The notes under the pieces: model-generated
Seen by the model: the letters and a program-made list of their open reading frames with translations, nothing else
The model's database searches: none
What the model was told of the DNA's origin: nothing
In this document: positions 1-58,822 of the stretch, piece after piece
How the letters are laid out: every line of letters begins with the position of its first letter
Position numbering within the stretch: position 1 is the stretch's first letter
Virus record (IMG/VR): IMGVR_UViG_3300031998_000005
From: a virus
Taxonomy: Duplodnaviria > Caudoviricetes
Strand: one strand, 5' to 3'
Length of the DNA stretch: 64,000 nt
Position numbers and translations under genes: made by a program

Positions 1-6
1 CCGTAT

Positions 7-2133
7 ATGTATTTCTCGCAACATATCCGTCTTGCCTATCAACTCATAGATACCCCACTCCCCAAGTTGCCTACGGACATCCGCACGACAGGCGATGCGG
101 AGCAGGCGGCACAATGGATTGACGAAATTATTGAGTGGGGCGAAACCGACCAACTTGACAAGTCGCCCGAAGGCTACCACGATGTAGCCATTGACTATGA
201 AACCACGGGATTGAAACCCCATCGTGAAGGACACTCTATCAAGGCTGCGTCCGTTGGCTACCGCAAGGATGGAGAATACCACGCTATCGGATTTTGGTGG
301 GATAACGACAACGAACATTTGATTAACTCTTGGTATAGGCTCACGCACCACAAGTCCATCGGTATGGTCGCTCACAAGGCAGACTACGAAGCCTGTTGGA
401 CTAGGTTTAGGGCGGGTTTGCACGGGAGTCGCACCGATTGGATTGATAATTGGTCGTGGGACACTTGCCTTGGTGCCCACGTGATTGACAACAATCAAAA
501 GGTCGGGCTAAAACTCCATACCTACTGCGAACTTGGTGTCATCGGCTACGATGACAAGGCTGACGAGTTTATCTCCAAGACCTTGCCAGGTGAAGACCCG
601 CAAAGTTGCAACTCGTTCAATATGCTCAAAAAGGATGTGGGTGTTCCCAAGGGCGACATCGCTTTCTACTGCGGACAGGACTCCGCTTATACCATCGCCC
701 TGCGTGATGTTCAATCCGCTCAAATGGCAGGGCTTGAAAAGCCGTTCCGTTTCTTTATGCAAGGTATGGACGCTCTTGCCCGTGTGCAGTCGGAGGGGTT
801 GCCGATTGACTATGCCAAGATTAACGACTTGCAGGCTGAATTGGAAGCCAAGTATAAGGAATCCGAAGATGCCGTCAAGGTGTCCGATGAGGCAAGGCGG
901 TGGTGTAAGTTGCACCCAGGCGAGTCCTTTAACCCGCTCTCCAATAAACAGATTGTGGAAGTCCTGTATAAGATTTGCGAACTGAAACCGCCTTCGGGTA
1001 AGGAAGACGCTACGGGCGATACCCTTGAAAAATTGGGAACTCCGTTCTGCAAGGCTATCTTGGGTATGCGACGGTGGGCAAAAATTATGGACTTCTTGGA
1101 TAGTTATAAACGAGAAGCCGTTTGGGATGAAGAAAAGCAGGCTTATCTTATCCGTCCGTTCTTCAACTTGTCCACGGGTGCGGGTGGCGATGGCGATGCC
1201 GGTCCACGAACCTATCGTTCGTCTGCCGACAGCCCGAATTTCCAAAACATTCCGAAACGTGACAAAGAAATGAAGAAATTGCTCCGTTCCCTGTTCGTTG
1301 CCCCCAAGGGCTACCGCTTTATGGAAATGGACTACAAAAGCCTTGAAGTGATGGTGTCCGCTTCTTATCATCACGACCCGCAGATGATACACTACTTGCA
1401 GAACCCCGCATCGGATATGCACAGAGATACCGCCTGTGATATGTATATCCGTAAGCCCGAAGAACTGACCAAGGAAGAACGCTCCACCATCAAGGCGGGC
1501 TACGTTTTCAGTTCGTTCTATGGTGCGTCCTACAAGTCTTGTGCTAGGTATATGTGGAATAATATGCCGAAGACCACCAAGGAACACTTGATGAAAGACT
1601 GCGGGATTAAGACCTACGAAAAGTGGGAGGCACACGTCAAGAAAGGCGATGACATCTTTTGGAATCAGCGTTTCAAGGTTTACAATGCGTGGCGTGGCAC
1701 GGAATGGGATAGATACCAAAAGTTCGGATATGTGCAGTCCTATACGGGTTTCCGTTGCTACGGACCGATGGGCTACACCGAAGCAACGAACCGCTGTATT
1801 CAAGGGTCTGCATTCCATATCCTGCTGAAAGCCCTTACCTACGACTTGAAAGACTTTAAGGCACAGGGTTTGCAGTCCTGCATTATCGGGCAAATCCACG
1901 ATGCTATTATCGCTCTCGTCAAGGAAGGCGAAGAAGATGCTGTCGCCAAGATTGTGTTCGGTAATGGCGTAAAGCGTGTCAGCCAGGAATTTCCTTGGAT
2001 TTGTGTTCCGCTCGTTATTGAAGCCGATGCGTCTGCCGTTGATGGCTCTTGGGCAAAGATGACCGAAGTGGGTGCTTTGCGGACGGAGGGTATGCCCGAA
2101 AATTGGGAAACCAAGTTTGAGGTAGCCCATTGA
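7..2133 (+). CDS. polA: Family A DNA polymerase with 3'-5' exonuclease (probably 5'-truncated by window edge)
   Basis: ExoI DYETTG; RSSADSPNFQNIP; motif A DYKSLE; motif B R..IK...F..FYG; motif C QIHD; frame open from base 1. Confidence 0.95.
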   Translation: MYFSQHIRLAYQLIDTPLPKLPTDIRTTGDAEQAAQWIDEIIEWGETDQLDKSPEGYHDVAIDYETTGLKPHREGHSIKAASVGYRKDGEYHAIGFWWDNDNEHLINSWYRLTHHKSIGMVAHKADYEACWTRFRAGLHGSRTDWIDNWSWDTCLGAHVIDNNQKVGLKLHTYCELGVIGYDDKADEFISKTLPGEDPQSCNSFNMLKKDVGVPKGDIAFYCGQDSAYTIALRDVQSAQMAGLEKPFRFFMQGMDALARVQSEGLPIDYAKINDLQAELEAKYKESEDAVKVSDEARRWCKLHPGESFNPLSNKQIVEVLYKICELKPPSGKEDATGDTLEKLGTPFCKAILGMRRWAKIMDFLDSYKREAVWDEEKQAYLIRPFFNLSTGAGGDGDAGPRTYRSSADSPNFQNIPKRDKEMKKLLRSLFVAPKGYRFMEMDYKSLEVMVSASYHHDPQMIHYLQNPASDMHRDTACDMYIRKPEELTKEERSTIKAGYVFSSFYGASYKSCARYMWNNMPKTTKEHLMKDCGIKTYEKWEAHVKKGDDIFWNQRFKVYNAWRGTEWDRYQKFGYVQSYTGFRCYGPMGYTEATNRCIQGSAFHILLKALTYDLKDFKAQGLQSCIIGQIHDAIIALVKEGEEDAVAKIVFGNGVKRVSQEFPWICVPLVIEADASAVDGSWAKMTEVGALRTEGMPENWETKFEVAH

Positions 2134-2876
2134 TTGAGTTGAACAAAATCTACAATATGGATTGTCTTGATGGTATAAAGGACATTGAAGACAATAGCAT
2201 TGACCTTGTTTTGACCGACCCCCCGTATCTATTTGACAATAGTAATTGGGATGTTTCCGACGTGAACGGGGCGAAAAGCCTTATCGCCCACAACAGGTTA
2301 TATAGCACCACGGGTGTCCTGCGTGATGAACTAGGTCATTTCGCAGAAGAAGAAATCTGTTGCCTGTTTGACGCACTTATCCCGAAGATGAAAAAGGTCA
2401 ATATGTTCTTTTTCTGCTCCGAAGAACAAGTGCCTATCTATGGAATGGAAGCCCGCAAGCGTAGCCTGCACTACAATATCCTTGTTTGGGAAAAGCCGTT
2501 GTCCATCATAAACAAGAACAGGTTTTCTATGAATACGGAATACCTTGTGCGAGTATATGATTTCGGAACGGGATTGAACCGCTTGGACACGAATGACCAC
2601 TATAACAAGGTTCTGCACGATGCTAGGGTCACGGATAAAATCCACCCGACCCAAAAGCCTGTTTCTATATTTCGCAAGATGATTAAACTTACGACCCAAC
2701 CTGGCGATGTAGTCCTTGACCCGTTTATCGGCAGTGGCACGACAGCAGAGGCTGCGGTCATAGAGAAACGCAAGTTCATCGGGTTTGAGAAGAACGAAGA
2801 ATACTACAAGGGGGCTAATGCCCGCCTGCGTAATTTCACAGGACCGTTCCACCTGTTTGGAAACATTGGGGTATAA
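2130..2876 (+). CDS. DNA methyltransferase, N4C/N6A beta class (MTase-1)
   Basis: DPPY before HPTQKP and DPFIGSGTT. Confidence 0.92.
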   Translation: MIELNKIYNMDCLDGIKDIEDNSIDLVLTDPPYLFDNSNWDVSDVNGAKSLIAHNRLYSTTGVLRDELGHFAEEEICCLFDALIPKMKKVNMFFFCSEEQVPIYGMEARKRSLHYNILVWEKPLSIINKNRFSMNTEYLVRVYDFGTGLNRLDTNDHYNKVLHDARVTDKIHPTQKPVSIFRKMIKLTTQPGDVVLDPFIGSGTTAEAAVIEKRKFIGFEKNEEYYKGANARLRNFTGPFHLFGNIGV

Positions 2877-2879
2877 CAG

Positions 2880-3647
2880 ATGGAATTGAACAGGATATAC
2901 AACAGGGATTGCTTGGAAGGTATGAAGGACATACCCGATGGCAGTGTGGATTGTATTATCTGCGATTTGCCCTACGGAACGACTGCCTGTCAGTGGGATG
3001 TAATTCTCCCCTTTGACAAACTTTGGGAGCAGTATAAGCGTATTGCACGTGAAGACGCACCTATCCTGCTATTCTCAAAACAGCCGTTCACGAGCCATTT
3101 GGTTTTATCTAACCTTGAAATGTTTAGGTATGAACTGATTTGGGAAAAAACCCGCCACAGCAACAATATGCAGTTGGGTAAGCAACCCGCAGCAATTCAC
3201 GAAAACATTGACGTGTTCTATCAAAAGCAACCCGTATTCAACGAGCAGAAGTTCAACGTAGACCCCAAATACATTGACAAGCGTAAGAGCATTAACAATG
3301 CGATTTACAATAGCGAACATTACACGGGAACAATGACCAGGAAAGCGGACGATGGAACTCGCCATTCCCAAAGTATTCTCCCGTTCAATTCCGTATGGCA
3401 ACAGGATATGCACCCTACGCAGAAACCTGTGGATTTAATCCGCTATCTTATTCGCACCTACTCTAATCCAGGTGATACCATCTTGGATAATTGTATGGGC
3501 AGTGGCACTACCGCCATCGCAGCCGTCCTAGAAAAGCGTAAATTTATCGGATTTGAAACAAACAAGGAATACTTTGATATTGCCAACAAGCGGTTGCGGG
3601 ATTTGACAGGACCGTTCCGCATTTACGGAAATATCGGAAATGAATAA
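2880..3647 (+). CDS. DNA methyltransferase, beta class (MTase-2)
   Basis: DLPY, HPTQKP, DNCMGSGTT. Confidence 0.92.
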   Translation: MELNRIYNRDCLEGMKDIPDGSVDCIICDLPYGTTACQWDVILPFDKLWEQYKRIAREDAPILLFSKQPFTSHLVLSNLEMFRYELIWEKTRHSNNMQLGKQPAAIHENIDVFYQKQPVFNEQKFNVDPKYIDKRKSINNAIYNSEHYTGTMTRKADDGTRHSQSILPFNSVWQQDMHPTQKPVDLIRYLIRTYSNPGDTILDNCMGSGTTAIAAVLEKRKFIGFETNKEYFDIANKRLRDLTGPFRIYGNIGNE

Positions 3648-3652
3648 CAACG

Positions 3653-3666
3653 TGCTATATATTTAA
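3653..3666 (+). promoter_or_regulatory. Class II promoter-like element (TGCTATAT extended -10, no -35)
   Basis: Same motif recurs intergenically at 5565, 6217, 9133, 15049, 39368. Confidence 0.55.
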
Positions 3667-3678
3667 CGAGGAAACACT

Positions 3679-3987
3679 ATGGATAATTTTCAAATTGCAA
3701 AACAAATGGTGATGGATATTCAAGCGGTCGCTACCGAAGCATTGGACCGCTTGGATAGACTTCCGACCGAAGAAACCATTTCCGTGGATAAGGCTTGCCA
3801 AGCCGTTCACGAATGTGCAAAAGGCTACGAAGATTTCATTGATAATCTTACTATTGAAGCCTGTTGCAACATTCTGCTCAAAAAATATCAAGGGCACGAA
3901 CCCTCGCAGGGCGATGTTCTTACTTTCAAGACAGCCATTGAACTGACACTCCATAATGACTATGGCGTGTCCACATCCAAATTTTAA
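3679..3987 (+). CDS. Hypothetical protein
   Basis: GAGG RBS; C-terminus (GHEPSQGDVLTFK) paralogous to next gene. Confidence 0.75.
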   Translation: MDNFQIAKQMVMDIQAVATEALDRLDRLPTEETISVDKACQAVHECAKGYEDFIDNLTIEACCNILLKKYQGHEPSQGDVLTFKTAIELTLHNDYGVSTSKF

Positions 3988-4008
3988 CCCACAACCAAGG
4001 AATAAATT

Positions 4009-4368
4009 ATGCAGACTGATATAGACATCCAAGACATCAAAGACGATGTGGATAGGCTTGCCGAAAAATACACCGACCAAGCCGATGAAATCAAGGAAGA
4101 CATTGACAGGCTCGTGGCAGAATACGAAGACCGCATTGACTCCCTTGAAGACGATAACGGTCATCTGGCTTCCCGTGTGGAAGAATTGGAAGAAGAACTT
4201 GAAGAAAAGGAACAGGCACTTGCGAATGTCAATCTTGAAGACTACGCATCCTCTATGCTCCAAACCTTTACAGGACACGAACCGAATATGGGCGAAGTCC
4301 TGTCGCTCAAGGATGACCTTGAAAAACTCTTGACAACCAAATACAACATTTCGTTAGGAAATCTCTAA
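4009..4368 (+). CDS. Acidic coiled-coil hypothetical protein
   Basis: AAGGA RBS; internal repeat IK(D/E)D(V/I)DRL; GHEPNMGEVLSLK. Confidence 0.75.
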   Translation: MQTDIDIQDIKDDVDRLAEKYTDQADEIKEDIDRLVAEYEDRIDSLEDDNGHLASRVEELEEELEEKEQALANVNLEDYASSMLQTFTGHEPNMGEVLSLKDDLEKLLTTKYNISLGNL

Positions 4369-4369
4369 T

Positions 4370-5314
4370 ATGTCGCTTTACAAAGAATACAGACCGAAAA
4401 CCCTTGATGAAATGATGGGCAACGAAAAGACCATTGAAGCCATCAAGACCCATTTCGCACAAGACCCGAAACGTGTTTCCCACTGCCATATCTTCTATGG
4501 CGGTAGCGGTTGCGGAAAGACTACCATCGCCCGTGCCATCGCTACTGAAATTCTCCACGCTGACCCGACTTTCAGCATTCGTGAGTATAACTCGTCTAAC
4601 AATCGTGGCATTGACACAGTCCGTGTGATTACCGATGAAATGAAGGGTATGCCCCTTAAAGGCAAGTCGCTCGTCTATATCATTGACGAAGCACACGGAA
4701 TGACCACGGACGCTAAACGTGCTTTCTTGAAGCCCACTGAAGATATGCCGAACCACGTGTATTTCTTCTTCTGCACCACGAACTTGACGCAGTTCTTGAA
4801 GGGCGATGAAGGCAAGGCTTTGGCTACCCGTAGCACCCAATGGAAGATGGAACCGCTCAATCCCCGTCAGTTGGGCAAGTTGGTTCTCCGTGTTGCTGAT
4901 GCAGAAAAGTTCAATGTTGATGACAAGGTGCTTACCGCCATTATGGATGTAGCCGATGGCTCTCCCCGTGCCGCCCTTGTCGCTCTTGAAAAGATTATGT
5001 CGCAACCGAACGACATTGACGCACAACTTAAAATCCTTGAAGGTGGTTTGGAAGAAGACCCCGATACCTTGGCGTTCTGCCGTGCCATTACTGCGGGTAA
5101 GCCGTCTTGGAAACAGATTTCGGACATCTTGAAAGATATGAAAGGCAGGGTGGATTCCGAAACGGTCCGCAGGGGCGTTCTTGGCTACTGCACGACTATT
5201 ATGCTCAAGAGCGGGTCTGACCGCATTTCCCGTGTAATGGAAGAATTTGCCGTGAATACCTATGATACGGGTTTCCCTGGGCTTGTTCTCGCAGCATATA
5301 GGTCGTTGAACTAA
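4370..5314 (+). CDS. DnaX (gamma/tau)-like clamp loader AAA+ ATPase
   Basis: [13 protein letters not shown], Walker [10 protein letters not shown], Walker B IIDEAH, FFFCTT. Confidence 0.9.
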
Positions 5315-5559
5315 TGAAGAAAAATCAAAATCCGAATAAGGTTGGCGGGGTCGCCATTGAAAACTGCTTGGTGCTTGAAGCATTGGGCGGGGATAAGTTC
5401 AAGGTCAAACTCCCCAACGACCACGAAATGATTTGCCACCTGTCGGGCAAGATACGGAAAAACCATATCCGTATTCTGCCCTACGATACTGTGACGATTG
5501 AGGTCAGTCCTTACGATGTAATGAACAACGGCAGGATTGTCTATCGTAACAAAAAGTAG
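5314..5559 (+). CDS. infA: Translation initiation factor IF-1
   Basis: [40 protein letters not shown]...GRIVYR signature. Confidence 0.93.
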
Positions 5560-5582
5560 TATGGTGCTATATATTTAATGTC

Positions 5583-5655
5583 GGACGAATAGCACAATGG
5601 TTAGTGCAACGGACTCATAACCCGTGGGTTCTTGGTTCAAGTCCAAGTTCGTCCA
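5583..5655 (+). tRNA. tRNA with CAT anticodon (Ile2 or elongator Met)
   Basis: Acceptor GGACGAA/TTCGTCC, loop CT-CAT-AA, T-arm CTTGG-TTCAAGT-CCAAG; no encoded CCA. Confidence 0.88.
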
Positions 5656-5686
5656 TTAAACTCTAACAATTAAAGGAAGAATAAAA

Positions 5687-6178
5687 ATGGCTAACAATTA
5701 CTCTTTCTCCATCGGTCAAGTGGACCCCGACCTGGAAATTGACTTTATGGATTTACAGCCCCCTGTGGCTATGCAGGCTTCCCTGTATGGTTATTACAGT
5801 GACAAGGCGGTGGACGCACGTGCCGAGCGTGATTCTGCCGTGAACGAACTTGACAGGGTGACCTCTGCGGTTGAACTTGAAATCCGTGAAGACGCTGCCA
5901 AGAGCGGAGAAAAACTGACCGAAGCCAAGGTAAACGCCAAGGTGGAACAGGACAAGCGTGTAGTGGAACTCAAGGAAATCGTGGTTGAAAAGAACCGCAT
6001 TCTGCAACGCCACGAAGCCAAGTGCCGTGCCCTTGACCACAAGAAATCTATGATTGAATGTGCTGTCCGTATGATGCTCTCCAAGTCCAACGTAATGAGC
6101 GAAAAGGGCGTGGCTGACGAATGGGCAGGCGATGAATCGCAAAAGGCTATCCGCAGGGAACTGCGTGGTGGCAAATAA
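5687..6178 (+). CDS. UvsY-like recombination mediator (helical)
   Basis: Coiled-coil with GEKLTEAKVNAKV; position before SSB and RecA/UvsX. Confidence 0.55.
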   Translation: MANNYSFSIGQVDPDLEIDFMDLQPPVAMQASLYGYYSDKAVDARAERDSAVNELDRVTSAVELEIREDAAKSGEKLTEAKVNAKVEQDKRVVELKEIVVEKNRILQRHEAKCRALDHKKSMIECAVRMMLSKSNVMSEKGVADEWAGDESQKAIRRELRGGK

Positions 6179-6328
6179 AAAGTTTCAATATGGTAATAGC
6201 CAAAATGACGCTATCTTGCTATATTGAAGTATCGCCCCTTGCGGAGTTCTCCTATTCCGTAAAGGGCGTAGTGAATAGTGAACAAGAACAAACAACGCAA
6301 ACAGCAAACTACATAAAAGGAGTTGAAT

Positions 6329-7741
6329 ATGGCAGGATTTGACCGTAGCCGTATTAGCGGTGGCTTGGGTCGTCGCACCCAACAGCAGACCGATACCCGT
6401 GAATCCGCAGGCGGTGTGGGCCGTCAAGGATTTATGAACTATTCCACGCACAAACTGAAGTTCTTTAAGATGGGCGAGCCTGGGACTTACCACGACTTGA
6501 ACATTTTGCCGTGGCTTATCAGTTCCAAGAACCACCCCGAAGTGGTGGCAGGACACGCACAGGTTGGCGACCCCGACTACGTGCTTGACTTGATGGTTCA
6601 CACTCGTATCGGACCGAACCAGGGCGACTACATCTGCCCGAAGAAGAATTTTAACAAGCCGTGTCCGATTTGCGAACAGGCTGATGAACTTTGGAAGAAC
6701 GACAAGACCAAGGACGAAGCCCGTTCGCTGTTCGCTCGCCGTAAGTGCGTCTATCTCGTGCAGGAACTCACTGACGAGTTCCACGCCAAGAGTGAAGACC
6801 CGATGGTGTTTGAAGTGTCGCACTCCGTTTTCTCCAAGGAATTGCAGAGCCGTGCCACCTCTTGCCTGCGTGGTAAGGGTGTCGTGAATTTCGCTGACCC
6901 CGATGTTAAGGTTGGCAAGGTCGTGTCCTTCTCCGTGAACGAAGAAACGATGGGCAACGGCAAGAAGTTCAAGCAGGCGGGCAACTTTGAGTTCAACGAA
7001 CGTGTTGAAGAAATCAGCGATGAAATTCTTGAAAAGTGTCCGTCCTTGGATTCTATGATGGTCATTAAGACTTATGACCAACTCAAGTCTGCTCTTTATG
7101 GTGACCCCGATGACGTAGAAGAAGATTTTGAAAATCAGCAGGACGAAGACGAACAGCCGTCTGCTCGTTTCCGTGACAACGAACCCCAGGACTACGCAGC
7201 AGGACGCTCTCGCCATAACGATGTGGAAGAAGACGAAGCACCCGCACCGAGGCGTGGTCGTCGCCCTGTTGCCGAAGAAACCGAAGAACCCGCACCGAGG
7301 CGTAGCCGTCCGCAGGCAGAACCCGCAGATGAACAGGAAGAAACCCCTGCTCCCAGGCGTAGTCGCCCGCAGGCAGAAGAACCCGCTCCTGCTCGTTTTA
7401 AGGACAACGAACCCCCCGCAGACGAAGACTTTGTTGTGGACACGTCCGCTGACCCCTACACGGCTGCAAGACGCAGTTCCCGCAAGTCCAAAGTAGAACA
7501 GGATTCTACCAAGGAATCCGTCCGTCCGACTGAAAAAGCACCCGCTATGCCGTTTGACGATGAGGAAGAAGAACAGCCCGCAGAAAAGGCTGAAACTCCG
7601 AAGCGTGGAGCGTCCGAAGGCGAATGCCCGAACGGATATGAATTTGGTAAGGACTGCGAACGCCAACCGCTTTGTAGCCGTTGCCCCGATGCCATTTGGT
7701 CCAAGTGCGATGCCTGCCATCGCAGGATGGCTCGCAAGTAA
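6329..7741 (+). CDS. gp32-like single-stranded DNA-binding protein with long acidic repeat tail and C-terminal Cys cluster
   Basis: H..IGP....ICP......CPICE Zn site; acidic tail; position upstream of recombinase. Confidence 0.7.
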   Translation: MAGFDRSRISGGLGRRTQQQTDTRESAGGVGRQGFMNYSTHKLKFFKMGEPGTYHDLNILPWLISSKNHPEVVAGHAQVGDPDYVLDLMVHTRIGPNQGDYICPKKNFNKPCPICEQADELWKNDKTKDEARSLFARRKCVYLVQELTDEFHAKSEDPMVFEVSHSVFSKELQSRATSCLRGKGVVNFADPDVKVGKVVSFSVNEETMGNGKKFKQAGNFEFNERVEEISDEILEKCPSLDSMMVIKTYDQLKSALYGDPDDVEEDFENQQDEDEQPSARFRDNEPQDYAAGRSRHNDVEEDEAPAPRRGRRPVAEETEEPAPRRSRPQAEPADEQEETPAPRRSRPQAEEPAPARFKDNEPPADEDFVVDTSADPYTAARRSSRKSKVEQDSTKESVRPTEKAPAMPFDDEEEEQPAEKAETPKRGASEGECPNGYEFGKDCERQPLCSRCPDAIWSKCDACHRRMARK

Positions 7742-7761
7742 GAAATACCCGTAAACAACAA

Positions 7762-7794
7762 GGGGGCGTTGGTGCTATGCTAACGCCCCTTTTT
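7762..7794 (+). terminator. Intrinsic terminator
   Basis: GGGGCGTTGG/CTAACGCCCC stem plus T-run. Confidence 0.7.
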
Positions 7795-7808
7795 ACCAAG
7801 GACATATT

Positions 7809-9122
7809 ATGGCTGCTAAAAAGAAAGAAGATTTCGGTGTCATAGCCGAAGAACCCCGTGTCCGTATGGGTAGCGATTTGCTTGACCTACTCGTAGGCGG
7901 TGACAAGGGTGTGTATGGTTTGCCTTTCGGAGTTATCATCCAGATTTGGGGCGATAGTTCTGCGGGTAAGACATTCATCAAGAACGAAATGATTGCCTCT
8001 ACCTATTGGCAGATGGGCGGTCCGAAAGCGAACCTTGTTTGGGAATCCGATGACAGCGAATCGGGCGATACGTTCAAGACGCAGTATCTGTATGGAATTG
8101 ACATCCATCCCGAAACTCGTAAGATTGGCCCGTATGAGTTCCACGATTCTTCTACTGTGGAAGAAATGGACGGCAAATTGACCAATATGCTGAATTGGAT
8201 GCCCGCAGGAACTTACGGCATTTATGCCGTGGACTCCCTTGATGGTCTTGCCGATAAGGAAATCATCGCCAAGGAAGCCGCCCGTGCAAAGAAACAGGCA
8301 AAGGGCGAAGAAGTCAAGGACGAAGGCGATTTCGGTGCCCACATCGCCAAGTTCTTGTCGCAGGACTTTTTCCGCACAAAGCACAAGCCTTTGGAAAAGA
8401 AGAAGACTACACTCATTATCGTTTCGCAGACCCGTTCCAATATCGGTGGGGGCAACTACGGTCCTAAAAGGAAAACGAGTAATGGCGATGCGATGGAGTT
8501 CTACTGCCACACCCGTTTGAAAGTGTCTAGGCTTGCCTGGATTATGCGTGAAGGCACAAAGGTGGGCGTGGTGGTCAAGGCTACGACTACCAAGGCTAAA
8601 ACTCCCCGTCCGTATCGTGAAGTGGTCTATACGGCTTACTTTGATTACGGCATTGACAACATCGGTTCTAACTTGGATTACCTGTTTGACCTTCGTGGCG
8701 ATGACGGGGCATTGAAAAAGTCTGCCGATAGTATCGCTTGGAGTGCCAATGCCAAGAAGAAGACGATGGCTAATCTCAAAGATTGGTTGGATAAGAACGG
8801 GTGGACTGCCGAGTGCAAGGCTGACCGCAAGGCTGCGGAGGGTAGCAACTCCCTTACTGTGGATTGGGTCATCGGGTGGGCTACCGAAGAACCCGAACGC
8901 AAGGCTAATTTTGATGAGGAATTTGGAGAAGAATACTCTCGTGATGAACTTATTAAACTTTGCGAAGACAATCCCGAAATGGCAGAAGAACTGACCCGCA
9001 GAGTGCGTGAAAAGTGGGAAGCACACGAAGACGCAGTAGCGTCCAAGCGACCCTCCAAATACGGCACTCGCCCTGTGGAACAGCCTGCTGAAGAACCCGT
9101 TGAAACAGCCGAAGCCGAATAA
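7809..9122 (+). CDS. RecA/UvsX-like recombinase
   Basis: GSDLLDLLVGG, Walker A GDSSAGKT, AVDSL, IIVSQTR, GDAMEFYCHTRL. Confidence 0.9.
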   Translation: MAAKKKEDFGVIAEEPRVRMGSDLLDLLVGGDKGVYGLPFGVIIQIWGDSSAGKTFIKNEMIASTYWQMGGPKANLVWESDDSESGDTFKTQYLYGIDIHPETRKIGPYEFHDSSTVEEMDGKLTNMLNWMPAGTYGIYAVDSLDGLADKEIIAKEAARAKKQAKGEEVKDEGDFGAHIAKFLSQDFFRTKHKPLEKKKTTLIIVSQTRSNIGGGNYGPKRKTSNGDAMEFYCHTRLKVSRLAWIMREGTKVGVVVKATTTKAKTPRPYREVVYTAYFDYGIDNIGSNLDYLFDLRGDDGALKKSADSIAWSANAKKKTMANLKDWLDKNGWTAECKADRKAAEGSNSLTVDWVIGWATEEPERKANFDEEFGEEYSRDELIKLCEDNPEMAEELTRRVREKWEAHEDAVASKRPSKYGTRPVEQPAEEPVETAEAE

Positions 9123-9144
9123 GGTAGTATCGTGCTATATTGTA

Positions 9145-9175
9145 AGTAGTGGGGCGATTATGCCCCGCTACTTTC
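9145..9175 (+). terminator. Hairpin / possible terminator
   Basis: AGTAGTGGGGC...GCCCCGCTACT followed by TTC. Confidence 0.45.
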
Positions 9176-9188
9176 TCATTTAAGGACT

Positions 9189-9374
9189 ATGGACACTTTG
9201 AAATTTTGGAAGAAATTAAATACGCTCGTCAAGACAAGAACCCCGATGAAGACTGCCCGTAAGATGGTGGAGTCGGGCGAGATTACCCAGGAAGAAATAG
9301 CGTGGGCTTTGGCAGCGTTGGCGACCTTACCGATAAGTATGTTTGAAGTAATGCAGGAAAAGGGTGCAGTGTAA
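9189..9374 (+). CDS. Hypothetical protein
   Basis: AAGGA RBS, abuts next gene. Confidence 0.65.
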   Translation: MDTLKFWKKLNTLVKTRTPMKTARKMVESGEITQEEIAWALAALATLPISMFEVMQEKGAV

Positions 9375-10139
9375 ATGGAGTTGAATAAAATCTATAACAC
9401 GGATTGCTTGGTAGGGATGAAAGAAATCCCCGACAAGAGCGTGGATATGGTTTTATGCGATTTGCCGTATGGAACTACATCTAACAAGTGGGATTCCATA
9501 ATCCCGTTCAAGGACTTGTGGGAAACATACGACAGGGTGTGTAAGGATAATGCTGCGATTGTAATGACTGCTAGTCAGCCTTTCACGTCTATGCTCATTA
9601 TGAGCAATCTTGAAATGTTTAGACACGAGTGGATTTGGATAAAAAATCAAGGGAGCAATTTTGCAAACACGGTCCGTGAACCCTTTAAGGAACACGAAGA
9701 AATCCTTGTATTTAGCAAAGGCAAGTGGACATATAATCCACAGATGCAAGAACGTGCTGAAAGCGGAAAGGGTCGTGTGCAGTATAACGTAAAATTCGCT
9801 AGTAAATCCTCTAATTATAGAGAGTTTGAAACACGTGATATAAACAAAAAATCGGATTTAAGAGTTCCATCATCGTGGCAACGATTTAACCGAGAAACGG
9901 GGCTACACCCTACTCAAAAGCCTGTGGATTTGTTTCGCTATTTAATCCGCACCTACTCTAATCCTGGCGACACGATTTTAGACAACTGCATTGGCAGTGG
10001 CACTACGGCTGTGGCTGCGGTTTTAGAAAAACGCAAGTTTATTGGATTTGAAACAGACAAGACCTACTATGAAAAGGCTAATGAACGATTACGGAAATTA
10101 ACAGGACCGTTCCATATCTATGGTAATATCGGAGTGTGA
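9375..10139 (+). CDS. DNA methyltransferase, beta class (MTase-3)
   Basis: DLPY, HPTQKP, DNCIGSGTT. Confidence 0.92.
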   Translation: MELNKIYNTDCLVGMKEIPDKSVDMVLCDLPYGTTSNKWDSIIPFKDLWETYDRVCKDNAAIVMTASQPFTSMLIMSNLEMFRHEWIWIKNQGSNFANTVREPFKEHEEILVFSKGKWTYNPQMQERAESGKGRVQYNVKFASKSSNYREFETRDINKKSDLRVPSSWQRFNRETGLHPTQKPVDLFRYLIRTYSNPGDTILDNCIGSGTTAVAAVLEKRKFIGFETDKTYYEKANERLRKLTGPFHIYGNIGV

Positions 10140-10142
10140 TGT

Positions 10143-10829
10143 ATGGAGTTAAACAAGATTTACAACCAAGACTGCCTTGTAGGTATGCAGGAAATCCCCG
10201 ACAAATCTATCCCGATGATTTTAACGGATATTCCTTACGGCAAACTGAATGACATCAGCGAAAGCGGTATGCGGAAACTGAAAAAAGGCGATGCCGACAG
10301 CGTTACCTTTGACCTAAAAGAATTAGTGAACACTCTTTGTAAGAAAGCAACGCAGACCATCTATATGTTCTGCTCTACGGAACAGGTCAGCACCATCCGT
10401 GAAACGATGGACGCAAATGGTATGACCACCCGTCTTTGTATTTGGGAAAAGACCAACCCCTCGCCTATGAACGGGGAATACCTGTGGCTGTCATCTGTGG
10501 AATGCTGTGTGTTCGGCAGATTTCCCAAGGCGACATTCCACGAGTTCTGCAAATCCCCCGTGTGGCATTACCCCTGCGGACAATCCAATGAACATCCTAC
10601 GCAGAAACCCGTGGACTTGTTTAGATACATAATCCGAACATCGTCCAATCACGGAGATACCATTCTTGACCCGTTTATGGGCAGTGGAACTACGGCTATC
10701 GCAGCCATCCGAGAGGGGCGTAAGTTTATGGGATTTGAAATCAGTGAGCAGTATTATCACTTGGCTAACAAGAGGTTACGGCAACTTACAGGACCGTTCC
10801 ACCTGTTCGGGAATATCGGGGCAGAATAA
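10143..10829 (+). CDS. DNA methyltransferase, beta class (MTase-4)
   Basis: DIPY, HPTQKP, DPFMGSGTT. Confidence 0.92.
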   Translation: MELNKIYNQDCLVGMQEIPDKSIPMILTDIPYGKLNDISESGMRKLKKGDADSVTFDLKELVNTLCKKATQTIYMFCSTEQVSTIRETMDANGMTTRLCIWEKTNPSPMNGEYLWLSSVECCVFGRFPKATFHEFCKSPVWHYPCGQSNEHPTQKPVDLFRYIIRTSSNHGDTILDPFMGSGTTAIAAIREGRKFMGFEISEQYYHLANKRLRQLTGPFHLFGNIGAE

Positions 10830-10834
10830 GCACA

Positions 10835-10869
10835 GGCTATCCGACCACAACGGATAGCCAATTTTTTTT
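10835..10869 (+). terminator. Intrinsic terminator ending replication module
   Basis: GGCTATCCG/CGGATAGCC stem plus T8. Confidence 0.8.
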
Positions 10870-10889: not shown

Positions 10890-10918
10890 TTGACAGGCAC
10901 TTGATATTTTGTTATATT
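10890..10918 (+). promoter_or_regulatory. Early sigma70-type promoter (class I)
   Basis: TTGACA-17-TATATT with TG extension; conserved ACAACCAC leader. Confidence 0.85.
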
Positions 10919-14402: not shown

Positions 14403-14486
14403 GGGCGAGTGGTGGAATTGGCAGACACGGCAGACTCAAAATCTGTTGGCTTAATCGCCTTGCGGGTTCAAGTCCCGCCTCGCCCA
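14403..14486 (+). tRNA. tRNA-Leu(CAA)
   Basis: GGGCGAG/CTCGCCC acceptor, GCAGA-CT-CAA-AA-TCTGT, long variable arm, GCGGG-TTCAAGT-CCCGC. Confidence 0.93.
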
Positions 14487-14506
14487 CTATCACAATCAGT
14501 TAAAGG

Positions 14507-32547: not shown

Positions 32548-32622
32548 GTGGCGGTAGCGTCAGCCTGGTAGAGCAGGGGACTGAAAATCCTCGTGTCGGT
32601 GGTTCAAATCCACCCCGTCGCA
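32548..32622 (+). tRNA. tRNA-Phe(GAA)
   Basis: GGGGA-CT-GAA-AA-TCCTC; GGTGG-TTCAAAT-CCACC. Confidence 0.88.
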
Positions 32623-32633
32623 CGAACAAATTT

Positions 32634-32706
32634 GGTTTCATCGTCTAGTGGTCAAGGACATTAGGTTTTCAACCTAAAGACTAGGGTTCAAGCCCCTATG
32701 AAACTA
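32634..32706 (+). tRNA. tRNA-Glu(TTC)
   Basis: GGTTTCA/TGAAACT; TTAGG-TT-TTC-AA-CCTAA. Confidence 0.88.
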
Positions 32707-32710
32707 CTAT

Positions 32711-32783
32711 GGGACGTTAGTTCAGTTGGTAGAACGCCTGCCTTGCAAGCAGGAGGTCATCGGTTCAAGTCCGATACGCTCCA
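32711..32783 (+). tRNA. tRNA-Ala(TGC)
   Basis: CCTGC-CT-TGC-AA-GCAGG; G3:U70 identity pair. Confidence 0.92.
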
Positions 32784-32792
32784 CTACATTTT

Positions 32793-32865
32793 TCTGCCCT
32801 AGTTTAATGGTAAAACACCCGCCTGTTAAGCGGAGAGAGTCCACGTCCGAATCGTGGGAGTAGAG
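32793..32865 (+). tRNA. tRNA-Asn(GTT)
   Basis: CCGC-CT-GTT-AA-GCGG; CCACG-TCCGAAT-CGTGG; G discriminator. Confidence 0.8.
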
Positions 32866-32872
32866 CGAATTT

Positions 32873-32955
32873 GGATAGGTATGCAAGTGGCTAAAGCAGG
32901 CGGTCTGTAAAACCGCCCCCTTCGGGGTTCGTAGGTCCGAAACCTACCCTATCCA
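32873..32955 (+). tRNA. tRNA-Tyr(GTA)
   Basis: GGATAGG/CCTATCC; GCGGT-CT-GTA-AA-ACCGC; variable arm CCCCTTCGGGG. Confidence 0.9.
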
Positions 32956-32960
32956 CGAAT

Positions 32961-33043
32961 GGAGAATTACGCTAATTGGTAAGCGACCTCGGTGCTAACG
33001 AGGCGGGTGCAAGCCCTTACAGGTTCAAGTCCTGTATTCTCCG
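32961..33043 (+). tRNA. tRNA-Ser(GCT)
   Basis: GGAGAAT/ATTCTCC; CCTCG-GT-GCT-AA-CGAGG; long variable arm; G discriminator. Confidence 0.88.
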
Positions 33044-33146
33044 TTAGGTTTTTGACAGTATTTTGTGAATATCCTGTTTGCTTTTTGTAGTAAATAGTTA
33101 TATATTAAGTATAAATTCTACAAAATCCCCCGACAAGGAAATCACA

Positions 33147-34887: not shown

Positions 34888-35343
34888 ATGACCCTTACGG
34901 AACTCATTGAAGCAAGCAAGAACGGTCCTGTGTATATCCGTCAAAAGCACCCCCGCCACGTAGATGGGGGGCTTTGTCGGGAGGCATATTCTACGACCTA
35001 TCTGCTTGTGAACTCCCTGTCCAAAGTTCCCTGTGGTTATAACTACGGGGTTCTCTTACAGGATTTCGCCTTGGAAGTTCGGATGTCCGTGGAATATGTA
35101 GAGTATTACGAACCTTGGACGGGAAAGCAGTTTTCCCCGACTTGTGTTATTGAATTTGACTGCGACAAGTTTCAGCACGTCACCGAAGAATGGCTCTCCC
35201 AATGGGAGTTCGTGGAAGACAACCGCCTGCCCGATAACATCGCAAATTTTGTAGAAGACAAACTTTACACCGAAATGGACAATGCCGAAACCCGTTGGAT
35301 TGCGTGGCAAGGCATACAGGAGAAGATTGATGAACGCCTTTAA
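34888..35343 (+). CDS. Hypothetical protein
   Basis: GAGG RBS. Confidence 0.65.
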   Translation: MTLTELIEASKNGPVYIRQKHPRHVDGGLCREAYSTTYLLVNSLSKVPCGYNYGVLLQDFALEVRMSVEYVEYYEPWTGKQFSPTCVIEFDCDKFQHVTEEWLSQWEFVEDNRLPDNIANFVEDKLYTEMDNAETRWIAWQGIQEKIDERL

Positions 35344-42378: not shown

Positions 42379-42678
42379 ATGACAAAAAGCGAACAGAAGA
42401 AAATCCTTGACTTACTCAAACGTCTGCAATACAGCCCTTACAAGGATTTATGCGACCGCCCTACGGGAGTGTTGTCCTTTAAGTCAAAAGACGGGCGTGT
42501 AGTATCTACGACCCTGTGCAACGCTGACAAGATTATACCCGCATTCAAGAAAGAACTCAAAAAGTTGCTTAAAGACTTGACCGAGCAAAATGAAGATACG
42601 GGTGGAGAATGGCTGACTAACGGGAATGTTCCCGATGAACCGCTGGACGCACAGCAAAATTGGGGAATTTTCGGATAG
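42379..42678 (+). CDS. Hypothetical protein
   Basis: Similar to N-terminus of 40115. Confidence 0.65.
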   Translation: MTKSEQKKILDLLKRLQYSPYKDLCDRPTGVLSFKSKDGRVVSTTLCNADKIIPAFKKELKKLLKDLTEQNEDTGGEWLTNGNVPDEPLDAQQNWGIFG

Positions 42679-58185: not shown

Positions 58186-58433
58186 CCCTTATGGATTACA
58201 CGCTCTTGACCAAGGGAATAGCCATCGGCATTTCGGCTACGCTCCCGTTCCTTGTCATCGCCCTTGTAAAATGGCACATTTGGAAATCCGACTGCAAGTT
58301 CTGGAAGATGATGCACTCCGACCTAGCCAAGCAGAACGAACGCCTGTTCCGTGCCGTCAAGGATGCCGAAGACAAAGCCAAGTATGCCGAAGCCGAACTC
58401 AAACACGCCATCAACCAATACAAGCCAATCTAG
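58182..58433 (+). CDS. TM plus coiled-coil protein
   Basis: Hydrophobic helix then heptads. Confidence 0.6.
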   Translation: MTLMDYTLLTKGIAIGISATLPFLVIALVKWHIWKSDCKFWKMMHSDLAKQNERLFRAVKDAEDKAKYAEAELKHAINQYKPI

Positions 58434-58450
58434 CCGAGGAACACACCCCT

Positions 58451-58822
58451 ATGTTCATACCCCCATTCCCATACGACGCACCCCCATACGCCCAACTGCT
58501 CAAGATACTCGGTCGCCAGGACCCCGCCACGCAGAAATCCATCGCAGAACTTTCCGAGCAGACCGCACAGCGATACTGCGACCGATACGCAGACCAATCC
58601 GACCGATTCCGCTCATACGCCTACCTATACGACTTGAGCAAGCGGGTGCGGTGGGTCGTGTATCGCAACATTATGTTTGACTACGAACCCGTGGAAGACT
58701 TTGCCGAAATCCAGCAAATCAAGGAACTATACACCAAGCAATTCGGGGAACTCCTGGACAATCCCCCGTGGCAGTGTGTCAACGGCGACGTGGTAAAGCC
58801 CACCCCCGAAACCCTTACCTAG
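58451..58822 (+). CDS. Hypothetical protein
   Basis: CCGAGG RBS. Confidence 0.65.
   Translation: MFIPPFPYDAPPYAQLLKILGRQDPATQKSIAELSEQTAQRYCDRYADQSDRFRSYAYLYDLSKRVRWVVYRNIMFDYEPVEDFAEIQQIKELYTKQFGELLDNPPWQCVNGDVVKPTPETLT

Follow-up and report, generated by a model that had tools for sequence, protein, structure and literature searches.

Tethering of proteins to a sliding clamp by short motifs is already known from several systems. The bacterial beta-clamp-binding motif is said to go back to Dalrymple et al. (2001), and in phage T4 the tails of gp43, gp33, and gp55 bind gp45, the motif being matched to the phage's own clamp. At the C-terminus, the bacterial motif takes the form QL(S/D)LF, and its clients include Pol II, Pol IV, Pol V, Pol III alpha and delta, MutS, and Hda (PMC9690074). 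The C protein of phage Mu also uses the beta clamp via a short motif (bioRxiv 10.1101/2025.01.04.631326; PMC12867686). In eukaryotes, the DNA methyltransferase DNMT1 is recruited to the sliding clamp PCNA, and newly replicated DNA is methylated (PMC9690074). We analyzed a stretch of 64,000 nucleotides (hereafter the window) of IMG/VR virus record IMGVR_UViG_3300031998_000005, which is part of an uncultured gut or rumen phage of 216 kb. Four DNA methyltransferases encoded in the window, M1 to M4, end in the same 12-residue peptide (hereafter the tail). We propose, with a chance that we would call even, that the tail is a clamp-docking peptide tying methylation to the replication clamp.

The sequence-only reading of the window had described four methyltransferase open reading frames (ORFs) with a shared start, a shared end, and differing middle regions. 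The four ORFs exist, and all of them matched PF01555 (N6_N4_Mtase) with E values of 2e-27 to 5e-32 and 97-112 bits versus a cut-off of 26.7. In an alignment of the four proteins, the invariant residues were E-L-N-x-I-Y-N-x-D-C-L near the N-terminus and R-L-R-x-x-T-G-P-F-x-x-x-G-N-I-G near the C-terminus, with divergent regions between them. The shared start can be written as (M)(I)ELN(K/R)IYNxDCL and the shared end as RLRx(L/F)TGPFx(L/I)(F/Y)GNIG; the overall identity among M1-M4 was 38-56%. The genes and their tails are listed below, together with the position in each tail of a 13-nucleotide stretch (the 13-mer, ACAGGACCGTTCC). An example of the tail peptide is RKLTGPFHIYGNIGV.

2130..2876, plus strand: methyltransferase M1, beta-class, motif IV DPPY; the TTG start overlaps the polymerase stop codon
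2835..2873, plus strand: M1 tail, FTGPFHLFGNIGV, with the 13-mer at 2838-2850
2880..3647, plus strand: methyltransferase M2, motif IV DLPY; the start lies 4 nt past the M1 stop codon
3603..3644, plus strand: M2 tail, LTGPFRIYGNIGNE, with the 13-mer at 3606-3618
9375..10139, plus strand: methyltransferase M3, motif IV DLPY; AlphaFold model m6c24268485b9
10098..10136, plus strand: M3 tail, LTGPFHIYGNIGV, with the 13-mer at 10101-10113
10143..10829, plus strand: methyltransferase M4, motif IV DIPY; the start lies 4 nt past the M3 stop codon
10785..10826, plus strand: M4 tail, LTGPFHLFGNIGAE, with the 13-mer at 10788-10800

The motif order of the four enzymes is circularly permuted, with motif IV (DPPY in M1, DLPY in M2 and M3, DIPY in M4) at residues 29-33 and an intact S-adenosylmethionine-binding motif I, (F/C)(I/M)GSGTT, near the C-terminus. 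The AlphaFold model of M3 (predicted template modeling score 0.80) was compared with the solved beta-class enzymes M.MboIIA (1g60), M.BceJIV (8urk), CcrM (6pbd), M.RsrI (1eg2), and M1.HpyAVI (5hfj), whose fold and motif order are as in M3 (Z 22-25; sequence E 2e-18 to 1e-12). The VIA-align comparison with M.MboIIA (1g60_B) gave a Z of 24.7 and a root mean square deviation of 3.3 A over 211 aligned residues, and M.BceJIV (8urk_A) gave a Z of 24.2. The specificity regions of M1-M4 fell into three clusters, M2 and M3 being placed together with 38% identity in the region; the M1 type was also found in genes of loci L004 and L005. M1-M4 look like active orphan enzymes of the beta class with at least three types of specificity, which are probably co-expressed with the phage replisome.

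The tail had been placed outside the catalytic fold, and this placement was borne out. The tail lies past the end of the Pfam domain (..A-N-x-R-L) and past the alignments with compact homologues, and its predicted local distance difference test (pLDDT) score is low. The sequence alignment of M3 to M.MboIIA stops at query residue 242 of 254, and the structural alignments with M.MboIIA, M.BceJIV, the CcrM core, and M1.HpyAVI cover only model residues 1 to 241-244 of 254. The pLDDT was above 90 in the core, and then 69 and 57 in the tail. A tail folded into the core would have spoken against docking; the M3 model shows no such folding, although the alignment is shallow in the tail columns. The compact solved enzymes have no residues corresponding to the tail, and CcrM has an 80-residue C-terminal domain instead. 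A helix was drawn through residue 246 of M3; in the model of a QLTLF-tailed homologue the last helix runs to residue 248 with a pLDDT of 79, which is uninformative on disorder.

The T, G, P, and F residues and both glycines of GN[IL]G were invariant among 40 distinct tail-bearing proteins, although these proteins span at least six specificity-region types with approximately 25% identity in that region. One tail position, the ninth after the invariant arginine of the last helix (R+9), is freely variable (H/Y/R/K/C/S), like the middle residue of QLxLF. The tail appears from this pattern to be under strong purifying selection. The tail had also been called unique. It recurs in a clade of uncultured phages, but there it is confined to PF01555 methyltransferases: a degenerate DNA pattern scan found it in 24 ORFs on nine IMG/VR contigs, one to four per contig and all PF01555, and in metagenomic proteins. 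No other protein with the tail turned up in the degenerate scan of IMG/VR or when the six-frame translations of the window and of the related contig G001 (213 kb, 97% complete), with which the window is colinear, were searched with regular expressions. One clade member, P0259, carries nine extra residues past the tail motif. A weak look-alike is a 99-aa ORF of the window (42379-42678), which ends in NWGIFG.

The homologues of M3 and M4 were then compared at the same place. Only the closest matches carry TGPF..GN(I/L)G, and most other near homologues end in Q-L-(T/K/S)-L-F, S-L-F, or L-W-W. The best homologues comprised 120 proteins for M3, 119 for M4, and 120 for an enzyme of the phrog_757 type described below. 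A C-terminal Q-h-x-h-F or h-F end (h, hydrophobic) was present in 73 of the 120 best M3 homologues, at 62-92% identity, and in 74 of the 119 best M4 homologues; the background for such ends in the reading frames of this phage and G001 was 37/790 (4.7%), with 0/790 for the Q-type. Counted from the invariant arginine, the homologues read Q7-L8-x9-L10-F11-COOH and the window enzymes P7-F8-x9-(L/I)10-(F/Y)11, followed by G-N-I-G-x. The tails of the M4 type were exactly 11 residues long in 71 of 109 proteins, the Q being present in 69, the L in 72, and the F in 72. These comparisons support the conclusion that the tail matches, in position and register, the canonical beta-clamp-binding pentapeptide of many homologues.

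In broader PF01555 samples, QLxLF-type ends were common but not universal, with a share of 18-27%. The motif was present in 29 of 106 distant representatives, in nine of 42 IMG/VR loci, and in 13 of 72 GTDB genomes across Bacteroidota, Bacillota, and Pseudomonadota, where more had a near-terminal QxxLF. A clear QLxLF tail was absent from the cultured-phage homologues of Pseudomonas HU1, Geobacillus GBK2, Lactococcus PhiM.16, and Staphylococcus O1-69. In Streptococcus mitis SM10, a homologue ending in SQMTLF is flanked by phage genes for a helicase and a primase, after which comes a RusA gene; this locus is a prophage replication module and an independent parallel. Two M3-type methyltransferases ending in QLKLF and QLRLF (L044 and L057) were also seen 58 kb apart on CADAZU010000001.1, a 180-kb contig binned as a rumen Bacteroidales metagenome-assembled genome. 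The contig is possibly a further large phage that was binned as bacterial.

The methyltransferase complement varies among the syntenic relatives of the window. In G001, the tail is present on all four PF01555 genes. DnaN-like proteins are encoded by G001 and by two further relatives, the sister phage G002 and G003 (TIGR00663, E 5.6e-15 and 1e-4; polymerase-adjacent copy PF02768, E 7e-7). Two divergent DnaN-like paralogues are present in G001 (173741-172632 and 181508-180378; L021, L018) and in G003, and the DnaN-like gene of G002 is at 141351-142436 (L175). The polymerase-adjacent paralogue matches PF02768, and the other matches only TIGR00663 (E 5.6e-15) and has the C-terminus ..TLFAPMS, an end that we take to resemble the ..VVMPMRL end of E. 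coli beta. Since a DnaN-like gene lies directly upstream of the polymerase in G001 and G002, the corresponding gene of this phage is expected just to the left of the window. By contrast, no TIGR00663 match was present in five other large viral contigs with M3-type enzymes ending in PLF, SLF, or LF.

The relatives also carry other tails. The third PF01555 enzyme of G002 ends in ..VGPFRMF-COOH at R+11 and lacks GNIG, and it is an intermediate form. Moreover, a phrog_757 'DNA methyltransferase' of G002 (136673-137398; L175:1673-2398), which has no Pfam match, ends in GQLSLF-COOH. Among the 120 best homologues of this type, 95 end in QLxLF or hydrophobic-Phe, and the phrog_757 type makes a second, unrelated methyltransferase family with the canonical clamp motif. 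Canonical QLxLF ends thus form a wider pattern on the closest relatives of two unrelated families (approximately 60% for PF01555 and 80% for the phrog_757 type).

A tree of the enzyme cores without their tails was inferred by maximum likelihood (quick LG+G4 search, unrooted, one row dropped). The TGPF-tailed proteins were found on both sides of a long, well-supported split between the M3 and M4 types, each group also having QLxLF-tailed proteins, and the tree forces at least two tail changes. Because the tails differ while the cores are 65-73% identical, the same short C-terminal slot must have been re-written. The tail type follows the phage lineage and not the enzyme subfamily, every PF01555 type resident in the clade apparently having the clade version. 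A direction of change, from QLxLF to TGPF or the reverse, was not established, as the tree is unrooted and the TGPF-tailed rows are central in it.

Taken as a clamp-docking peptide, the shared (L/F)-T-G-P-F-x-(L/I)-(F/Y)-G-N-I-G would be short and flexible, and would replace, specifically in this lineage, the QLxLF found at the same position in the nearest relatives. The F-x-(L/I)-(F/Y) core would most likely sit in a sliding clamp's hydrophobic cleft, and the clamp bound would probably be one of the clade's divergent DnaN-like proteins encoded beside the polymerase. Each methyltransferase might then ride behind the fork and methylate new phage DNA before host restriction enzymes cut it. We infer that the QLxLF ends of these methyltransferases bind a clamp, that the TGPF tail does likewise, and which clamp it binds. 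We speculate that two phage DnaN paralogues and the host clamp leave room for client sorting. In a further-reaching version, TGPFx(L/I)(F/Y)GN(I/L)G would define a new class of peptide for clamp binding that arose from QLxLF at its original place and was tuned to a divergent phage DnaN, the enzymes would be sorted between the phage clamp or clamps and the host beta clamp, and clamp tethering would be widespread, and as yet undescribed, in phage and prophage methyltransferases of at least two unrelated families. We regard this version as possible but rather doubtful.

Compared with the known motifs, the tail shows both likenesses and differences. Like the bacterial beta-clamp motif, which is short, flexible, usually C-terminal, and of the h-x-h-aromatic type, the tail has F-x-(L/I)-(F/Y) in the register of the homologues' L-x-L-F. 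It lies in a flexible terminal segment outside the folded domains (pLDDT 57-69), and it shares its position, R+7 to R+11, with a bona fide motif in orthologues, the GPFRMF-COOH end being intermediate. However, it has a proline in place of the glutamine, and its core is framed by two invariant stretches, T-G on the N-terminal side and G-N-(I/L)-G on the C-terminal side. P-F-x-(L/I)-(F/Y) departs from the consensus (QL(S/D)LF; variants QLxLxL and QxxLxxF) in having no glutamine, while the hydrophobic positions 2, 4, and 5 are retained. The tail is not a PCNA-interacting protein (PIP) box, Q-x-x-(I/L/M)-x-x-(F/Y)-(F/Y), either: in (R/K)-x-L-T-G-P-F-x the L-to-F spacing is 4 and not 3, and the aromatic pair is missing there. 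The proposed clamp-coupled methylation of newly replicated DNA resembles that by DNMT1 and PCNA. The eukaryotic pair differs in its clamp (PCNA), in its motif (Qxx[IL]xxFF, located toward the N-terminus of DNMT1), in its C5 type of enzyme, and in the maintenance and not protective role of the methylation, and there is no homology. The T4 and Mu C clients are likewise encoded by phages and held on a sliding clamp through a short linear motif, but they are polymerases and transcription factors and not methyltransferases, and the clamp here is DnaN-like and not gp45-like.

If true, the proposal would mean that phage anti-restriction methylation is physically coupled to replication, and it would explain how several methyltransferases protect a 216-kb genome under fast copying. 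It would also provide a prokaryotic and viral counterpart to DNMT1-PCNA. Furthermore, the variant tail would be a natural clamp-binding motif re-tuned to a phage clamp, and could inform client sorting and the design of clamp-directed peptides.

The docking of the enzymes on a clamp or replisome, as suggested by the sequence-only reading, was partly supported, by the position of the tail, the QLxLF register, and the replisome operon with its DnaN-like clamp in relatives, but not by the known clamp clients, none of which shares the tail. Several further observations weigh against it. In G001, the tail was found on no other protein, including the polymerase and other expected clamp clients; therefore, the pattern usually seen with shared docking peptides is missing. 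The tail lacks the consensus glutamine, and its five-residue GNIG(x) extension has no counterpart in known clamp-binding motifs. AlphaFold continues the last helix into both kinds of tail at lower confidence, and disorder is neither shown nor excluded. The clamp gene of this phage lies outside the window and is placed there by synteny. The link between tail type and phage clamp comes from one clade and hence is a single evolutionary event. No DNA methyltransferase was found among the published bacterial clamp clients, and full-text searches found no literature linking a bacterial or phage DNA methyltransferase to a clamp-binding motif. In addition, QLSLF-tailed and TGPF-tailed methyltransferases occur side by side in G002, which could reflect two clamp types or a partner other than the clamp.

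That last possibility leads to the first alternative, in which the tail docks a different phage-specific partner, such as the polymerase, the gp32-like single-strand DNA-binding protein (SSB), the recombinase, a protein of packaging or of the head, or a regulator. A tail that is lineage-specific, strictly conserved, and flexible would suit such a partner, as would its absence from the expected clamp clients, and the two tails of G002 suggest two targets. G001 also encodes an 88-aa ORF (58348-58614; L024:18348-18614), a weak look-alike that starts with MPKLKIMVHE, a head-cargo-like leader, and ends in FGLFGNRG; no homologue of this ORF was found in the relatives. However, no candidate partner is indicated by any of the data, and the match to QLxLF in position and register and the GPFRMF-COOH intermediate would have to be left as coincidences. 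We consider another partner to be an unlikely, though serious, explanation.

It was also considered whether the tail acts within the enzyme, as a dimerization arm (including heterodimers among M1-M4), as a lid that covers the site for cofactor or DNA, or as an added DNA contact. The beta-class enzymes M.MboIIA, CcrM, and M.BceJIV work as dimers, and these dimeric enzymes are the top fold matches of the M3 model. The C-terminal segments of M.RsrI and TTHA0409 past the last helix align to the end of the model, and the predicted helix through residue 246 points the same way. Nevertheless, the tail was modeled at low confidence, with neither a strand nor packing predicted for it. Compact homologues function without such a segment, and cores of 65-73% identity carry QLxLF or nothing instead, which is hard to square with a shared catalytic role. 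An internal role of this kind is quite improbable.

A C-terminal degron or timing signal, read by a host or phage protease and limiting methylation to part of the infection cycle, is suggested by the C-terminal location and the hydrophobic end, which generally resemble those of C-terminal degrons; moreover, Caulobacter CcrM is controlled by Lon proteolysis. However, none of the data implicate a protease, and the equivalence to QLxLF and the replisome context would be left unexplained. C-terminal degrons usually must be terminal, and P0259 continues past the motif. We hold this reading to be very unlikely.

The remaining alternative concerns the DNA of the tails. The 13-mer had been reported as identical in all four genes, and it indeed occurs exactly four times in the window, once per tail, compared with 0.01 matches (at most one mismatch) in shuffled sequence. 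A fifth near-copy on the minus strand (34919-34931) was taken to be a chance match because its frame is broken by stop codons and it has no methyltransferase context. Identical codons were used in all four genes at only seven of 59 invariant-residue columns, and four of these columns, T-G-P-F, are consecutive. Synonymous sites are therefore saturated among M1-M4. From the codon usage of the window, the joint chance of codon identity at T-G-P-F is approximately 2e-6, a post-hoc figure; ACA, GGA, and CCG are not preferred in the window. The relatives use ACG/ACC, GGT/GGG, CCA/CCT/CCC, and TTT at the TGPF codons, and the clade-wide codon identity was 0.52 in the tail versus 0.43 in the gene body. 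The 13-mer was rejected as a functional DNA or RNA element, as the relatives vary synonymously and the codon identity of the tail is barely above that of the gene body. The four-fold identity is possibly due to chance or micro-conversion.

The sequence-only reading had further proposed that the shared ends permit recombinational swapping of the specificity regions. This proposal was not supported: the identity of the C-terminal module follows the specificity-region type and not the genome. Between genomes, modules of the same type were 81.7% identical in amino acids and 73.3% in DNA; within a genome, modules of different types were 69.6% and 68.0% identical, respectively, with a background of 70.1% and 67.0%. 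Excluding the window, codons were concordant in three of 13 within-genome pairs, near expectation. Swaps of specificity regions or concerted evolution were looked for among the relatives and not seen. That the shared ends are DNA-level recombination seams between paralogues would fit the unexpected 13-nt identity and the differing methyltransferase complements of the syntenic relatives, but given modules that co-diverge with the specificity regions, saturated synonymous sites near the 13-mer, other TGPF codons in the relatives, and a homology as short as 13 bases, it is scarcely credible.

The genomic setting, which bears on clamp docking, is given below. The methyltransferases had been noted to flank the polymerase, clamp-loader, SSB, and recombinase genes, and all four neighbors were identified by Pfam or PHROG profile matches.

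1..2133, plus strand: family A DNA polymerase gene, 5' end cut by the window start (PF00476, E 3e-37; phrog_17)
between M2 and the clamp-loader gene, plus strand: two small ORFs
4370..5314, plus strand: clamp-loader ATPase, DnaX/delta'-like AAA+ (phrog_5846, E 2e-55; PF13177, E 7e-13)
within 5314-5655, plus strand: IF-1 homologue inside the replisome cluster (PF01176, E 2e-20)
5583-5655: tRNA-Met (CAT), directly 3' of the IF-1-like gene
6323..7741, plus strand: gp32-like SSB (PF08804, E 7e-8; phrog_1192)
7809..9122, plus strand: RecA/UvsX-like recombinase (PF00154, E 6e-16; phrog_97)
9189-9374, plus strand: 61-aa ORF, stop codon directly before the M3 ATG
10835..10867, plus strand: terminator-like hairpin (10835-10859) with T-run, directly 3' of M4; from a consensus scan only
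10890-10918, plus strand: strong promoter-like site, 3' of the terminator-like hairpin; from a consensus scan only

M1 is translationally coupled to the polymerase, and M3 and M4 come after the recombinase and close the transcription unit. From the overlap of M1 with the polymerase, the 4-nt gaps before M2 and M4, and the terminator-like hairpin after M4, the methyltransferases therefore lie within the replisome transcription units. A hairpin with a 13-bp stem and a weak T-run was seen at 9144-9173, directly 3' of the recombinase gene and ahead of the M3-M4 pair, and might act in partial termination or in processing.

A protein identical to M4 has been recorded from a contig of 216,297 bp, and no near DNA match to the window was found in the phage collection. 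The window's polymerase has at most 25% identity to any cultured phage polymerase, and is 87% identical in amino acids to that of G001 (171959-169827), where the homologue has 894 aa. The polymerases of G001 (172517) and G002 (142384) start with MGFF(K/N)I, and this aromatic N-terminus, seen in two sequences, could be a clamp contact of the polymerase's own.

Some minor features of the window and of G002 were also observed. Seven further tRNA genes are present in the window, a tRNA-Leu(CAA) at 14403-14487 and the others (Phe, Glu, Ala, Asn, Tyr, and Ser) in a tight array at 32548-33044. The G002 clamp-loader gene, within locus L175 (G002 135001-154000), encodes 693 aa with a LAGLIDADG domain between its AAA+ parts, and therefore probably contains an intein. 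An RRXRR/HNH gene lies between a methyltransferase gene and the clamp-loader gene of G002. A C5 methyltransferase of G002 appears in two parts, the N-terminal one joined to a Hint domain (137441-138562) and the C-terminal one on its own (139837-140649).

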